From a virus (taxonomy: Duplodnaviria > Heunggongvirae > Uroviricota > Caudoviricetes): a DNA stretch of 8,652 nucleotides. The stretch is taken from IMG/VR virus record IMGVR_UViG_2778261644_000004. One strand, given 5' to 3'. The translations under genes and the position numbers were made by a program. The notes beneath the pieces are model-generated. The model searched no databases. It had not been told where the DNA came from and saw nothing but the letters and a program-made list of their open reading frames with translations. This document shows positions 1-8,652 of the stretch, piece after piece. How positions within the stretch are numbered: the first letter of the stretch is position 1; each line of letters starts with the position of its first letter.

Positions 1-15
1 GTGTTACCTGGCTAA

Positions 16-615
16 TCAGAACTTATAACCGACACCCACGATGAAACCGTCAGTGCGCCAGTCACCACTGCCGGAGCCTTCATAAGCAATATCAATGGCC
101 ACGGATTCGGTCGGGTTAAACTGCACGCCAGCCCCCCACGCCAGAGACGTGTTGCTGTGGCGACCGTCATCACTTCCGGTCAGCACATCGTGCGTTTTCC
201 CCTTGTTGTCAGTTACGCGAAGATAATCCCCGGAGAAAGTCGACACACGGCTGTAAGCCACACCCGCCATCGCATACGCGCTGAACCATTCATTCACGCG
301 CACAGACGGCCCCGCCATCACGCTGAACCAGCGGTTACGCACGGAATCTTCATGCCAGCGGGTATCGCTGTAATGGGTCAGCTGGCGATTCTTGTCTCCT
401 GCATAGCTGAATGACGTCACCATCCCCAGTGTGTCCGTAAACTCATAACGGTATTTCACGTTAATCCCGTTCAGATCATCGCTGCCGGGAACGTTCGTCG
501 AGGCATGAAGATACCCCGCGCTCAGCGTGGACTGATGTTCAGACGCCCATGCAGGCGCACCGGATACGGCCAGACAAATGGCTGCGGACAAAATGGCGGC
601 ATAAAGTTTACGCAT
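16..615 (-). CDS. lom: Lom/Ail-family outer membrane beta-barrel protein (lysogenic conversion protein)
   Basis: 199-aa ORF with an N-terminal signal peptide (MRKLYAAILSAAICLAVSGAPAWA, AxA-type cleavage site), alternating beta-strand-like segments and a C-terminal aromatic residue (ends ...GVGYKF) typical of OMP beta-barrels. It lies immediately downstream of J on the same strand, as lom does in lambda, and is similar in length to lambda Lom (about 206 aa). An SD-like GAGAGG sits 6-7 nt upstream of the ATG at 615. Confidence 0.88.
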   Translation of the reverse strand: MRKLYAAILSAAICLAVSGAPAWASEHQSTLSAGYLHASTNVPGSDDLNGINVKYRYEFTDTLGMVTSFSYAGDKNRQLTHYSDTRWHEDSVRNRWFSVMAGPSVRVNEWFSAYAMAGVAYSRVSTFSGDYLRVTDNKGKTHDVLTGSDDGRHSNTSLAWGAGVQFNPTESVAIDIAYEGSGSGDWRTDGFIVGVGYKF

Positions 616-636
616 AATTACCTCTCGCTTTTCTGC

Positions 637-663
637 AATAAAAAAGGCGTCATTTCTGACGCC
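637..663 (-). terminator. Rho-independent terminator between J and lom
   Basis: Perfect 7-bp inverted repeat ggcgtca (646-652) / tgacgcc (657-663) with a 4-nt loop. On the minus-strand transcript this is GGCGUCA-GAAA-UGACGCC (GNRA-type loop) followed directly by UUUUUUAUU (plus 637-645). It lies 19 nt downstream of the J stop codon. Confidence 0.6.
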
Positions 664-681
664 CGTTATGGGTTATAAAAT

Positions 682-4083
<3,402 letters not shown>

Positions 4084-4140
4084 TCACGCTCCAGAAACGA
4101 CAAAACCGCCCGCAGGCGGTTTCACATAAAACATTTTGCA

Positions 4141-4788
4141 TCAGCGACCAATCACCACAACCTGACCACCGTCCCCTTCGTCTGCCGTGCAGATCTCCTG
4201 AGATACCACGCGTGACCCCACGCGCATTTCACCGTACAGAACGGGCAGAACATTCCCCTGGGCAACCATGTTATCCAGTGAGGAGAAATAGGTGTTCTGC
4301 TTACCGTTATCCGTTGTCTGTGTGCGGGGAGTTCTGGCTTTCGGTGCCAGCATCTGAGCCACACCGCCCAGGATCATACTGGCCCCTGCCGCATACATGC
4401 CCGATACAGCCGCGGCACCCAGCCAGCCCACAGGGTTCCACCATGCCACCGCAATCAGCGCCGCACCCAGCACTGCCTGAAAAACACCGCCACTTTTAGC
4501 TCCCGCCAGACGCGGCACAATGTGGATCACGGCACCATTTGCCAGCGGCTCATTAAGACGGGCAGATAATTCATTTTCGCCTGCATCACGCCCGGCAATG
4601 CGCACCTGATACCAGCCCTCATTCAGTTTCTGGCGAAACGACGGAAGCTGCGTGGCCAGCGCCCGGATGGCTTCGGCCCCCGTTTTCACACGAAGGTCGA
4701 TGCGGCGGCCAAATCGTTGTAAATCCCCGTAAAGGCAGATGCGTGCCATGCCCGGTGACGCCAGAGGGAGTGTGTGCGTCGCTGCCAT
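4141..4788 (-). CDS. I: Tail tip assembly protein I
   Basis: 215-aa ORF starting MAATHTLPLASPGMARICLYGDLQRF..., in the lambda gpI position between K and J. Its 5' end overlaps the 3' end of K by 103 nt in a different frame, the same arrangement as lambda K/I. The C-terminal part is Gly/Ala-rich and hydrophobic. Confidence 0.87.
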   Translation of the reverse strand: MAATHTLPLASPGMARICLYGDLQRFGRRIDLRVKTGAEAIRALATQLPSFRQKLNEGWYQVRIAGRDAGENELSARLNEPLANGAVIHIVPRLAGAKSGGVFQAVLGAALIAVAWWNPVGWLGAAAVSGMYAAGASMILGGVAQMLAPKARTPRTQTTDNGKQNTYFSSLDNMVAQGNVLPVLYGEMRVGSRVVSQEICTADEGDGGQVVVIGR

Positions 4789-5429
4789 TTGTCTGTATAC
4801 CTCTCTCGTTTGCTCAGTTGTTCAGGAATATGGTGCAGCAGCTCGCCGTCGCCGCAGTAAATGGCGGCATGATTCGGCACCGATGAACCAAAACAGCACA
4901 GCAGCACATCGCCCGGCTGCGCCGCTGACAACGGCACCTGATACAGCCCTGTGGCCTCCAGATTATCCAGATAGAGATTCTGACCGTGACGCCACCAGTC
5001 ATCCTCGCGGTGAAAATCCGGCATCTCAATCCCCGCCAGATGGTAAGCATCCCGGAACAGCGTGTAACAGTCTGTCACCCCGTGCTCAAAGCGCCGTCCG
5101 GTAAGATGCGGCACACAGCGGAACTTGTGAATCGCTCCCCGACAGACCAGCCACCACGGCAAATCACTCTGCACCTGCAGCCGCCTGTCGGCTTCACTCA
5201 GCCAGGGCAGACCACCGGGATGACTGTGGACCAGCGCGACAATCTCACCCTGCATTTCTGCACTCAGCCAGTCCTCCGGCGACATCCGGAAATACGCCTC
5301 CGACTCACCGGAGATATTCACGCAGGGAAAATATCTTTCCCCTTCCGGCGTTCTCACCACGAAGCCGCACGACTCCGCTGGCGCACATCGCCGGGCGTGC
5401 GCCAGAATCGCTGATTCTGTCTCTGTCAT
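4686..5429 (-). CDS. K: Tail tip assembly protein K (JAMM/MPN plus NlpC/P60-like domains)
   Basis: 247-aa ORF. It contains a JAMM-type metal-binding motif H-S-H-x7-S-x2-D (VHSHPGGLPWLSEAD) and a downstream Cys/His pair (GVTDCYTLF ... VPNHAAIY) consistent with an NlpC/P60-like fold. It starts 5 nt after the L stop codon. An internal Met at codon 49 would give the 199-aa form annotated for lambda K. Confidence 0.87.
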   Translation of the reverse strand: MTETESAILAHARRCAPAESCGFVVRTPEGERYFPCVNISGESEAYFRMSPEDWLSAEMQGEIVALVHSHPGGLPWLSEADRRLQVQSDLPWWLVCRGAIHKFRCVPHLTGRRFEHGVTDCYTLFRDAYHLAGIEMPDFHREDDWWRHGQNLYLDNLEATGLYQVPLSAAQPGDVLLCCFGSSVPNHAAIYCGDGELLHHIPEQLSKRERYTDKWQRRTHSLWRHRAWHASAFTGIYNDLAAASTFV

Positions 5430-5434
5430 GGGAT

Positions 5435-6133
5435 TTACTGCGAAAGTTTGTTAATGGAAAGGAAGCCGCCAAAGTTGCCGACATTATTGCGAAACTTACA
5501 ACCGCTCAGGCATTTGCTGCATTTATCCTTCGTAATATCGGACGTCGGCTGGTCATATTCATCCGCAACAACCGGACCGTTATAACCGCACTCATCACCG
5601 CGATAGGTCCAGGTGCAGGTATTAGCCAGCATGATGCGCCCCGGAAAAACGGCACCATCCGTTTCAGTCGGTGTGGACAGTACAAAAGAGGCACTGACCG
5701 CGCTCAGTTCGCTGCACTGCTCGATGCGCCAGCGGCTGATCACCTCCTGCTCCGGATCGGCTTCGCTGTTTCCGTTGATGAAGTTCACCGCATCCAGAAA
5801 ACGGGCATAAACCTTACGCCTGACCACCGTTCCGCCGACCAGACTCTGCAGGTCTTCGGCCATCCCGGTGACCATGCCATACAGGTTAGATACCTTAAGT
5901 GTGGGACGTGCGCTGCTGCCCTTACCGTTCATCTCAAAGCCGCTTCCCTGAATGGGGTACGCCTGATACTTTCGCCCCTGCCAGGTAACCGGTTCACCTT
6001 TTTCATTCTGCTCATTGCAGAAAAAGTAACGCTCCCCACCGACCTCTGTCAGATCAATTTCCCAGAGCACCACGCTGGCCGTCTGCTCCACACGGATGCA
6101 TTCATTCAGTGTTTCCTGTCGTATGTCCTGCAT
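5435..6133 (-). CDS. L: Tail tip protein L
   Basis: 232-aa ORF, the same length as lambda gpL, in the position between M and K. It has a C-terminal cysteine cluster (C..C..DKCSKCLSGC) consistent with the iron-sulfur-binding C-terminus described for gpL. Its ATG overlaps the M stop codon (TGATG). Confidence 0.9.
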   Translation of the reverse strand: MQDIRQETLNECIRVEQTASVVLWEIDLTEVGGERYFFCNEQNEKGEPVTWQGRKYQAYPIQGSGFEMNGKGSSARPTLKVSNLYGMVTGMAEDLQSLVGGTVVRRKVYARFLDAVNFINGNSEADPEQEVISRWRIEQCSELSAVSASFVLSTPTETDGAVFPGRIMLANTCTWTYRGDECGYNGPVVADEYDQPTSDITKDKCSKCLSGCKFRNNVGNFGGFLSINKLSQ

Positions 6134-6471
6134 CAGATCACCACTTCGTCAAACTGACACGAAAAATCGGTATAGGTGATATGTTCTGTCGCTGACCACG
6201 TTCGACACACCACTCTGATTTTTCTGTTAATACCCGGCGGGCGCCAAAAAAAAGATTTATAGCCTTCATGCCGGGCTAAAAATTTTTCAAATGAATCACG
6301 TTCATTCGCCTCAACTTTGAAATCACAGGTGAAAACGCGCAGAGAATGATTAAGTCCATTTGGACTTCGTTGCTCATAACCATCACCAAATCTTACAGTT
6401 TTTATCGATGGTTTATTTTCTGTTTTCATTCCATCCTCTGGTAACCAGTGAAATTCTTCCGTATTAGCCAC
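6133..6471 (-). CDS. M: Minor tail protein M (tail tip)
   Basis: 112-aa ORF from a GTG at 6471; an alternative ATG at 6429 is preceded by GAGGA. It has a VRFGDGY motif and a size characteristic of the phage minor tail protein M family, and sits between H and L. It overlaps the H stop by 8 nt if the GTG start is used. The start codon is uncertain. Confidence 0.75.
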   Translation of the reverse strand: MANTEEFHWLPEDGMKTENKPSIKTVRFGDGYEQRSPNGLNHSLRVFTCDFKVEANERDSFEKFLARHEGYKSFFWRPPGINRKIRVVCRTWSATEHITYTDFSCQFDEVVI

Positions 6472-8581
6472 TTAACATTCCCCCATCACGTCGCATATTT
6501 AACAGATTGCCCTGCACCCGCTGATCAACCATCCCCATAAGTGCTTTTATTGCCTGAGGGCCAATCTCTCCATTCTGGCCGTCATTTTGAATAGTGATTT
6601 GGTATACAGGGGCATAGGTAATATCTCCGCCTCCATTACCACTTTTACTATTAATAGCTCTGACACCAAGAGAACCATCGGAAGTTCGTGTTAATGGCAT
6701 AATGGCTTCCGGTCCAGCCTCACCAAAAACACCAGCCCCTTTTGCAAAAGCAAAAAATTGCGGGGAATCATAAATACCGTTCGAATACGTGCTCAATGAC
6801 GGAGACTCATAAACACCGCCCTTTGCATTCGGAATAAATTTACTAATAGCACTCCCGATAGTTCCTAAAATCCCCCCAGAAGAACTGTTACTAATGCTGT
6901 CGAAAATCCCAGTAATTGAAGCCTTTAATGCTATTCGACTAAGATCCGAAATCACGGAAGTAGCGAAAGAACGAAAATTTGCCTTGCCTGTCGTGACAAA
7001 ATCACCCAGCGCATCGGTCATCCCATCAAACATCTGAGTCGTGGTTGATTTTATCTGCTCACTGATATCCTTAGTGTCATCCAGCCAGTTATTGAATCCC
7101 TGGGAGGCACCACTAACCCAGTCTCCTGCCTGAATATCGAGCTGCTCGTTTTTCTGTCTGACAATTTCTTTTTCCCGTTCCAGAGCATCATTCAGAGCCT
7201 GCATTTTCTCTTGAAAAACATGATCTGACATTCCACGGGATTTATCTGCATAGTCACGTTCAAGTTGCAGACGCTGATTGTTATATCCATGTTCAATCCG
7301 CAGTAATTCCTGCTGGCGTTGCTGATTTTTATCGCCAACCCCATAACCAGCAATCTGAATATCATACCCCTGCTGACGATTATCAATCGAAGCCTGCAAT
7401 GAATCACGCCATGCTGTTATTTCGGCGGATTCCTTGATTAGCCTGTTATTTTTTTCAATCGCAACATTTTTCTCCATCAACGTGGTTATTTCTTCCCGGT
7501 GTAAGAGAAGCGATTTCTGATCCTGGGTTAATTTCGATGATGGTCGTGACTCTAGGTCGGCAATCCGCTGACGCCACTTAACCAGTTCCTGTTCAGAGGA
7601 ACTTAATTTAACGGTCAACTCAGCTTGTGAACTTAGTAACGCATTCTGTTGATTCAGATGATCAATCATTCGTTGGGCTGCATCATCAGAATAACCTTTC
7701 GCCTTTGGTTGCTTTGGATCTTTATAACGCTCATTTATTTGAGCGATAAGATTATTATATTCTTCCTTTGAATACTGATTCTTTAGCTTTTCCAGTTTTG
7801 CAAGTTCACTAGCTCTCTGCTGCTCCCGGGTCTGATATTGTTTTGAAAAGGCATCTGCTCTCTGTCTGAGTTCAATTCCTTCCTGTTGTCGCTTGTTGTA
7901 ATCGTTTATTGATGAATTTAGTACGTCCTGAGCAATTTTTTCTGCTTGAAGTACGCCCAATTGCTGCTTTAATCGTGCCAGCCTTTTATTTTGAGCTCCG
8001 CCATCTCCAATGCCACCTAACCCGAAAACTCCGGGTCGGGTATTTTTTTCTATTTCATCAATTTGACGGAGAACATCTGAGATTTTTTGATCAAGGGAGG
8101 CCTCACGGCCAATATCCAGCATGGAATCCCATGCCCATTTTGCGGAGTCTGCGACAGCTTTCCATGCAGTCTCAAGATAACCAAGATTTTCTTTAATCTG
8201 GTTGGTGCGCTGGATCATTGAGGATGAGTATTCTTCTGTCGCAATGCGGGCGGCCTCCTGCTGGTTCCCTTCATCCTGTAGCGCCTTAATCTGGTTATAA
8301 GTCGCAAGTGTCAGAAAATGGTACTGATCATTAAGTTTTGATATGGCACTGACAGGATCCTTTGCAATTTCATTGAAGTCATTAACCAGTTGTTCGGTTG
8401 ATATTCCTGTTACTTCGCTCGTTTTTACTATCGCTGTCGTCACTTGCTCCAGCGAACTGCTCGCTACCTTTCCCGAACGCACAAGCTGATTTAATACTGC
8501 CGCCGCAGCACCAGTTGTCGAATCAGCCGCATTCCCGGCACGTTGAGCTATATCGCCCAATTGCCCGCTGGTTGTCCCCAA
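6464..8581 (-). CDS. H: Tail tape measure protein (lambda gpH-like), 5' end unresolved at window edge
   Basis: 705-codon ORF with a long Gln/Glu/Lys/Arg-rich predicted coiled-coil centre and a C-terminal region (...FRSFATSVISDL...; ...NDGQNGEIGPQAIKAL...RRDGGMLSG) that I recognise as resembling the C-terminus of lambda gpH. It sits upstream of M as in lambda. The ORF as given begins at a TTG directly after an in-frame TAA (8621-8623), while homology appears to continue upstream in another frame, so the true 5' end is ambiguous. Confidence 0.8.
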   Translation of the reverse strand: MGTTSGQLGDIAQRAGNAADSTTGAAAAVLNQLVRSGKVASSSLEQVTTAIVKTSEVTGISTEQLVNDFNEIAKDPVSAISKLNDQYHFLTLATYNQIKALQDEGNQQEAARIATEEYSSSMIQRTNQIKENLGYLETAWKAVADSAKWAWDSMLDIGREASLDQKISDVLRQIDEIEKNTRPGVFGLGGIGDGGAQNKRLARLKQQLGVLQAEKIAQDVLNSSINDYNKRQQEGIELRQRADAFSKQYQTREQQRASELAKLEKLKNQYSKEEYNNLIAQINERYKDPKQPKAKGYSDDAAQRMIDHLNQQNALLSSQAELTVKLSSSEQELVKWRQRIADLESRPSSKLTQDQKSLLLHREEITTLMEKNVAIEKNNRLIKESAEITAWRDSLQASIDNRQQGYDIQIAGYGVGDKNQQRQQELLRIEHGYNNQRLQLERDYADKSRGMSDHVFQEKMQALNDALEREKEIVRQKNEQLDIQAGDWVSGASQGFNNWLDDTKDISEQIKSTTTQMFDGMTDALGDFVTTGKANFRSFATSVISDLSRIALKASITGIFDSISNSSSGGILGTIGSAISKFIPNAKGGVYESPSLSTYSNGIYDSPQFFAFAKGAGVFGEAGPEAIMPLTRTSDGSLGVRAINSKSGNGGGDITYAPVYQITIQNDGQNGEIGPQAIKALMGMVDQRVQGNLLNMRRDGGMLSG

Positions 8582-8652
8582 CTGATTTCCTGAACCGCCC
8601 CGGGTTTCCTGGAGAGTGTTTTATCTGTGAACTCAGGCTGCCAGATCATCGT
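8551..8652 (-). pseudogene. H: Upstream portion of the tape measure reading frame in a different frame (runs off the window); possible frameshifted H
   Basis: The minus-strand frame offset by one nucleotide from the H ORF is open from the window edge to a TAG at 8548-8550 and reads TMIWQPEFTDKTL..., which resembles the region of lambda gpH just N-terminal to where the 705-aa ORF begins. I could not verify this alignment computationally. Confidence 0.35.

Follow-up and report, generated by a model that had tools for sequence, protein, structure and literature searches.

The DNA considered here, hereafter the window, is a stretch of 8,652 nt held as IMG/VR virus record IMGVR_UViG_2778261644_000004. 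Judged by its near-identity to annotated genomic copies, it is the distal virion operon of a Rac-type lambdoid prophage of Escherichia coli, and a single minus-strand operon with the genes lom, J, I, K, L, M and H runs across it in the six-frame open reading frame (ORF) listing. The G+C content (GC) drops sharply where M meets L, and this drop is a real recombination joint between two lineages. We consider it probable that the tail of the Rac-type prophage is a hybrid of these lineages, joined at the M/L boundary, in which a lambda-type block, L-K-I-J-lom, has been exchanged onto a low-GC module belonging to Rac. Gene coordinates below are those of the ORF listing, and protein identities are from Pfam, the matches of M and H being above the gathering scores.

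Homology to lambda-type phages ends at the M/L boundary

On one side of the joint lies L (5435–6133, minus strand), which encodes a tail-tip hub protein of lambda type (Pfam Phage_tail_L, E-value 3e-99; 94.0 % amino acid identity to phage 434 L; GC at third codon positions, GC3, 0.627), and on the other lies M (6133–6471, minus strand), which encodes a distal tail protein in a Rac-specific, low-GC allele (Phage_min_tail, E-value 1e-31, 109.8 bits against a cutoff of 39; GC3 0.336). The two genes overlap in the TGATG at 6133, where the stop codon of M overlaps the start codon of L. In megablast searches the lambda-type phages (434, lambda, 2H10, the PhiR series and others) match positions 1–6155 at about 94–95 % identity and nothing beyond. 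When the window is aligned with 434, identity in 250 nt bins is 87–98 % over 4751–6000 and falls to 39–49 % past 6250, with identity beginning about 22 nt before the M stop codon. The same change is evident in the proteins. The M product is only 38.5–40 % identical to M of 434 and its lambda-type relatives, as compared with 94.0 % for L, 95.5 % for K, 83.3 % for I and 90.6 % for J, in agreement with the initial annotation, which had M more diverged from the lambda type than L, K and I; the H product is 28–32 % identical to 434 H.

A query centred on the junction (5435–6900) matches 181 phage records, but only 10 of these, all of Rac type, cross the joint, and the remaining 171 share L but not M-H. 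In every match listed among these non-Rac records (47 of the 171), homology ends at 6073, 6078, 6136, 6144 or 6155. Together with the GC3 changepoint given below, these endpoints define a mosaic junction zone at 6073–6155, which reaches from about 60 nt inside L, across the TGATG overlap, to 22 nt inside M. The non-Rac phages that share L carry at least four types of M-H (those of lambda, of mEp460/cdtI, of the Stx-type phages and of PhiR49_2/PhiR55_1), and since their joints fall within about 80 nt of one another, it follows that one type of tail-tip cassette is found on several shaft modules. No intermediates were found: matches to M in the phage collection are either at least 99 % identical (the 10 Rac-type records) or at most 49.5 %, the M types of lambda, the Stx-type phages, PhiR55_1 and HK97 being at 38–50 %, and M homologues are either at least 97 % identical (in E. 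coli, Shigella flexneri and Escherichia ruysiae) or at most 49 %, the best outside Escherichia/Shigella being 44 %. The boundary thus combines the features of a lambdoid mosaic junction, namely an abrupt change of identity, a block that occurs with different partners and a break in composition that is independent of the proteins encoded. The initial annotation had read the window as a mosaic; a true boundary at M/L and an M-H of an allelic type different from that of lambda are both confirmed, but the extent of the foreign segment and the polarity of the exchange that it proposed are not.

A patch of about 35 nt at approximately 6121–6155, which includes the end of M, the TGATG and the start of L, is conserved across M types, and the sequence AGTTTGAnnAnGTGGTGAnCTGATGCAGGA is common to the Rac-type and lambda-type junctions and largely also to those of the Stx type and PhiR55_1 type. 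Most simply, this patch is the overlapping stop and start codons, the L ribosome-binding site (annotated inside the end of M in 434) and the conserved termini of the two proteins. A different and rather doubtful explanation is that the patch is a preferred crossover site, or linker, for recombinases acting on short homologies, such as RecET of Rac and Red of lambda, which would make tail-tip cassettes swappable between non-homologous shafts. The conservation of AGTTTGAnnAnGTGGTGAnCTGATGCAGGA among phages whose M proteins are only 38–50 % identical is in keeping with such a linker, as are the confinement of the homology endpoints to about 80 nt among the matches listed and the presence of morons in relatives at M/L (Fels-1) and at L/K (Stx2a_F349). 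However, translational coupling, the L ribosome-binding site and conserved termini account for the patch more simply, the endpoints fall at several positions rather than at one, HK97 is without the patch, and the window contains no Chi sites that might have caused a recombination hotspot. In its broadest form this explanation would make the junction (about 6121–6155) a maintained cassette joint at which RecET or Red swap tail-tip cassettes, and hence host range, between unrelated modules, with Rac as a long-lived reservoir or acceptor; we think this unlikely.

Some observations on individual records may be added. The moron of Fels-1 is a lom-like gene between M and L (positions 1954–2472 of our locus L009), while Stx2a_F349 has two hypothetical genes and an antirepressor gene after L (2557–3336 of locus L006). 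The L and M sequences of 'Campylobacter phage CJLB-4' (MW057783.1, hit H213; 48361 bp, a lambda-like length) match exactly as those of phage lambda do, and this record is probably a lambda contaminant or mislabelled.

Exchange at or near the joint has recurred in Rac-type loci

The M-H segment (6160–8590) is present in 741 of 5426 complete E. coli genomes, at a median of one place in each. At least 80 % of M-H is found in 699 genomes and at least 80 % of the whole window in 697, and the hybrid is therefore the standard form of the Rac-type prophage. Used as a query, the whole window matches 5283 of the 5426 genomes, at a median of five places; outside Rac-type loci these matches are to the L-K-I-J-lom side (up to about 6155 at most) or only to the 62 nt end of IS629 with which the window terminates, a sequence that by itself matches 4254 genomes and is included in the count of 5283.

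When the window is compared with six Rac-type loci, L is seen to occur as two alleles about 9 % apart. Allele 1 is that of the window, SPF_0923 and E. coli F163 (97.7–99.4 % nucleotide identity to the window), and allele 2 is that of NCTC9699, 666R9, S. flexneri and E. ruysiae (about 91 % identity to the window); both are about 91 % identical to 434 L. The M-H segment is 98.1–100 % identical between the window and the six loci, and within it two haplotypes can be recognized, separated by 33 differences of shared pattern: haplotype A in the window, SPF_0923, NCTC9699 and S. flexneri, and haplotype B in F163 and 666R9. All four combinations of haplotype and allele exist, A with 1 in the window, A with 2 in NCTC9699, B with 1 in F163 and B with 2 in 666R9, and exchange at or near the M/L joint has therefore been recurrent. 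The window and NCTC9699 differ at 2 positions over 2458 nt of M-H and at 64 over 698 nt of L, where the difference closest to the joint is at 6120; the informative sites of this pair bound the switch to 6121–6384, not to one nucleotide. Within L-J the divergence from SPF_0923 is patchy, ranging from 0 to 11 % per 250 nt, as expected of gene-conversion tracts.

The low-GC side belongs to the Rac prophage

The change of composition is steep and well localized. GC is 0.562 over 1–6132 and 0.430 over 6133–8400, and in a 300 nt profile it passes from 0.54–0.61 to 0.40–0.46 between 5851 and 6450, with the lowest values of the window (0.38–0.45) in M and the 3′ two-thirds of H. A single maximum-likelihood changepoint is placed at 6095 by raw GC (2-lnL support 5978–6161; log-likelihood ratio 55.7) and at 6142–6145 by third codon positions (support 6089–6253; log-likelihood ratio 90), GC3 being 0.657 to the left and 0.376 to the right. 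Gene by gene, GC3 is 0.61–0.67 in lom, J, I, K and L as against 0.336 in M and 0.385 in H. The initial annotation had estimated from hand counts that a low-GC M and H abut a high-GC L-K-I-J, with the change at or very near the TGATG, and on both points it was correct. The S. flexneri and E. ruysiae loci show this step as well.

The genomic setting indicates which of the two sides is the exchanged one. The best match among phages is 'Salmonella phage SPF_0923' (97.8 % over 1–8590) and the best among complete genomes is E. coli F163 (97.6 %), and the window DNA as a whole is 97–100 % identical to annotated public records. It had been proposed that uniform identity to one phage across the window would count against a mosaic origin. 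SPF_0923 does span 1–8590, but it is itself this hybrid and matches M-H more closely (99.9 %) than L-J (95–99 %), so that the test was poorly framed. The F163 locus has trkG-ynaK on one side and tfaR-sitABCD-uspF-ompN on the other, and ydaY immediately precedes the tape measure gene; by site and gene content this is the Rac prophage.

Upstream of H, the intact relatives SPF_0923 and F163 encode a non-lambda tail tube of BIG2 type, head–tail connector proteins, a capsid protein of P22 type and a minor head protein, and in the F163 annotation a DUF4055 portal and a terminase follow further upstream, beyond the stretch whose composition was measured. In the intact relatives low GC3 thus extends over 10 kb or more upstream. 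In SPF_0923, GC3 is 0.39–0.48 in the 11 genes upstream of H, 0.34–0.39 in H and M, and 0.61–0.68 in L-K-I-J-lom, and in phage 434 it is about 0.57–0.69 throughout V-G-H-M-L-K-I-J. Tetranucleotide frequencies give the same grouping: M-H correlates with the upstream module of Rac at r=0.72 and with L-K-I-J at only 0.28, while L-K-I-J correlates at 0.84 with the V-G-H-M genes of lambda type, with which it shares no homology. M-H is therefore no island but the distal end of a low-GC Rac module that can be traced by composition over about 11 kb (M through the minor head protein), and L-K-I-J-lom, which has the composition and signature of the lambda lineage, is the exchangeable piece relative to the Rac prophage. 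The proposal of the initial annotation that M-H had been acquired from an AT-richer lineage is accordingly not supported.

Among the relatives found, none has an intermediate M-H allele or a Rac-type M-H joined to a matching low-GC L-K-I-J. The nearest outside locus, in Providencia, was considered as a native low-GC relative and rejected; its GC is low throughout, but with 43 % identity it stands no nearer to the window than lambda does. The SPF_0923 record itself (GenBank ON032529) contains the chromosomal genes ompN, uspF and sitABCD (1–5128 of locus L001) and is colinear with the E. coli Rac locus. It looks like a prediction of a prophage region excised from a genome, and the Salmonella host label may be unreliable. 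The iron/manganese transporter genes sitABCD lie directly beyond tfaR at the end of intact Rac-type prophages (1679–5128 of locus L001; 6790–10239 of locus L004), and are possibly cargo or part of an adjacent island.

The opposite polarity, in which an AT-rich M-H segment, bounded and about 2.3 kb long, entered a lambda-type tail operon from a phage lineage of lower GC, would place a second boundary within H, near 8400–8460. The course of GC in the window has the appearance of such an island, since the minimum of 0.38–0.45 in M and the 3′ two-thirds of H is followed by 0.557 in 8460–8590, and GC3 in M and H is slightly below that of the genes upstream in the relatives. Those upstream genes are nevertheless non-lambda (the BIG2 tail tube, P22-type capsid and DUF4055 portal genes), with a GC3 of 0.39–0.48 where measured, and the tetranucleotide signature ties M-H to them. 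The rise itself is confined to the first and second codon positions (GC1 0.65, GC2 0.58, GC3 0.44) and corresponds to a Gly/Ala/Thr-rich peptide, GNQLGTTSGQLGDIAQRAGNAADSTTGAAAAVLNQ; in the intact H of a relative, GC is back to 0.45–0.48 further 5′ and GC3 per 100 codons varies from 0.31 to 0.48 over the entire gene. The last 62 nt of the window are IS629. The local rise that the initial annotation placed beyond about 8460 thus exists, but it is no second boundary, being a GC1 and GC2 effect of a Gly/Ala-rich peptide followed by an insertion sequence end, and we regard a bounded M-H island as quite improbable.

Protein composition does not account for the step. At those residues of M that are identical to 434 M, GC3 is 0.263 here and 0.605 in 434, and at the identical residues of H it is 0.34–0.36 here and 0.625–0.632 in 434; the step is therefore a matter of mutational and lineage history and not of the proteins encoded. 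The comparison of synonymous-site GC with amino acid composition, which had been suggested as a check, thus places the step at synonymous sites and rules out composition as its cause at matched residues. That there was no horizontal event at all, and that the GC gap stems from a Lys/Asn/Gln/Glu-rich coiled-coil tape measure or from gene-specific codon selection, is extremely improbable, for although H is long, helical and rich in Q, E, K and N, with a GC2 (0.39) below that of I or K, the gap is largest at third positions (0.26–0.36 against 0.61–0.63 at matched degenerate residues), the lambda-type H of the same fold and function has a GC3 of 0.655, and the step coincides with the total loss of DNA homology to lambda-type phages.

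A model for the exchange

By what pathway the halves recombined, which way the original exchange went and whether the halves are functionally compatible are matters of inference. The hybrid consists of two modules. The first, specific to Rac and low in GC3, begins in the head genes, includes the tail tube gene and H and ends with M, and it occurs as a single copy in those E. coli genomes that have it; the second is the tail-tip cassette L-K-I-J-lom of the lambda lineage, high in GC3 and shared among the lambdoid prophages of E. coli. DNA homology with other lambdoid prophages, or with infecting phages, is available on the L side only. Homologous recombination, whether by the host RecA or by phage Red or RecET-type recombinases, could therefore replace or patch L-K-I-J-lom as far as the homology reaches, but not beyond it. 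Breakpoints would be expected to pile up in the zone of about 80 nt at 6073–6155, while M-H would evolve clonally. Experiments have shown that Rad52-like recombinases promote recombination of lambda with defective prophages through diverged homology (PMC3945230), and lambdoid phages are documented to transfer tail gene modules together (PMC9836094).

The position of the joint may also be favourable for assembly. In lambda the hexameric ring of gpM has one face on the gpV tube and the other on the trimeric gpL/gpJ ring, and the gpI tripod carries the C-terminal helix of gpH (PMC10721106). The joint coincides with this seam between the six-fold part of the tail (the tube rings, and the M ring around H) and the three-fold L/J tip, which plausibly lets swapped halves assemble. 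The C-terminus is the best-conserved part of the H product, with 19 of the last 44 residues (43 %, counted from the alignment) identical to 434 H as compared with 28 % overall, which is consistent with a need to keep contact with the tip.

Several points weigh against this reading of the window. The pattern of four combinations could also have come from crossing over between two Rac variants at any point of the near-identical M-H instead of at the joint. The assignment of the window to the Rac locus rests on its 98–100 % identity to loci that are located there. The direction of the founding event is not provable, as no relative with a Rac-type M-H and a matching low-GC L-K-I-J was found. Finally, GC3 in M and H (0.34–0.39) is below that of the rest of the Rac module (0.39–0.48), which leaves room for an older boundary upstream of H.

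The tape measure gene is interrupted by IS629

The last gene of the window, H (6464–8590, minus strand), is present as its 3′ two-thirds, 708 of 1077 codons, in a Rac-specific low-GC allele; in the ORF listing the reading frame is 6464–8581, open towards the end of the window. It matches the Pfam domains TMP_2 (270 bits), Tape_meas_lam_C (91.4 bits) and TMP_4 (85.9 bits), and since the intact homologue of 1077 amino acids has all three, the gene is identified as that of the tape measure protein. Positions 8591–8652 are the terminal 62 nt of IS629, an insertion sequence (IS) of the IS3 family, and are 100 % identical to the ends of the IS629 copies carried by Stx phages. This end, which here is the inverted repeat adjoining the 3′ end of orfB, begins TGAACCGCCCCGGG at the exact point where colinearity with the intact H stops (8590/8591). 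The insertion has therefore cut H to 708 of its 1077 codons, and the prophage is defective.

The exact junction of H and IS629 at 8590/8591 has no match in the complete E. coli genomes or the species-representative genomes searched, nor in the individual loci compared with the window. The only complete E. coli genome that matches both the H and the IS629 halves is NCTC9699, where an IS3-family element lies in the tape measure gene (11730–12943 of locus L010) about 476 bp further 5′ than the IS629 of the window, and is therefore an independent insertion. In strain SW071619 (hit H146) an IS1 is found inside the Rac tape measure gene. Independent insertions in the Rac tape measure gene of different strains suggest ongoing decay of the prophage.

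Other genes of the operon

The genes on the lambda side beyond L, all on the minus strand, are of lambda type. K (4686–5429) encodes a tail assembly protein with Prok-JAB and NLPC_P60 domains (95.5 % amino acid identity to 434 K; GC3 0.657) and runs into I (4141–4788), which encodes a tail-tip insertion or plug protein (Lambda_tail_I; 83.3 % identity to 434 I; GC3 0.606). The patch of low identity to 434 at 4251–4750 (76–80 %, with flanks of 93–98 %) covers I and the I/K overlap and is a variable patch affecting the C-terminal half of I. J (682–4080) encodes the central tail fibre, or tip attachment protein, of 1132 amino acids (Pfam J domains; 90.6 % identity to 434 J; GC3 0.671).

The C-terminal, receptor-binding end of J (about 682–1300) and the spacer between J and lom, together at about 601–1300, form a separate low-GC mosaic patch with a GC of 0.45–0.49 in 601–1200. 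The receptor-binding end is 48–76 % identical to 434 (751–1250), about 73 % identical to the Rac loci of NCTC9699, S. flexneri and E. ruysiae, and 99 % identical to SPF_0923 and F163. The high-GC block of lambda type ends distally with lom (16–615), which encodes an outer-membrane protein of the Ail/Lom family (Ail_Lom, E-value 2e-121; 97.5 % amino acid identity to the 434 protein; GC3 0.625).

Relation to known elements and significance

The order ydaY, tape measure gene, M, L, K, I, J, lom, stf, tfa is that of the Rac prophage. Many natural isolates of E. coli carry Rac intact, whereas in K-12 it is a deleted remnant with ydaY, tmpR, lomR, stfR and tfaR. The window differs from intact Rac-type loci in the break of its tape measure gene by IS629 at 8590/8591, and from several other Rac-type loci in carrying a different set of L-K-I-J alleles. 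Its L-K-I-J-lom resembles that of lambda and 434 in gene order, in overlaps, in a GC3 of about 0.65 and in a nucleotide identity of 87.5–97.7 % by block over lom, most of J, I-K (87.5 %) and L (90.7 %), or about 91–95 % for the block as a whole, but it has different alleles in the receptor-binding end of J and in part of I, and it is joined to a non-lambda M and H. With the gene-boundary joints described in lambdoid mosaics, as in the modular genome hypothesis, it has in common the abrupt change of identity and composition, a cassette with varied partners and exchange with co-resident prophages (PMC9836094, PMC3945230), and there is nothing in it that is different in kind. The joint is thus textbook lambdoid mosaicism in a well-known element, already familiar as a kind of biology. 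As for the mosaic tail of Rac in the literature, neither PMC3945230 and PMC9836094 nor the related titles and abstracts surveyed mention the M/L joint or its reuse on a constant Rac M-H, and in PMC9836094 there is no mention of either tape measure or tail tip. Only two points are mildly new, namely that the M/L joint has been used repeatedly while the Rac M-H is clonal, and that this joint falls at the interface of the six-fold and three-fold parts of the tail.

What the window provides is a clean and quantified example of how lambdoid prophages evolve, in which a tail-tip cassette that determines host range circulates among co-resident prophages while an old prophage, fixed in the chromosome, keeps a clonal shaft and tape measure module, and in which the boundary of exchange coincides with a structural interface, that of the six-fold M ring and the three-fold L/J hub. 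It also carries a caution for annotation: a step of GC within a prophage operon need not mark the inserted piece, and in this instance it is the GC-rich side that is mobile.

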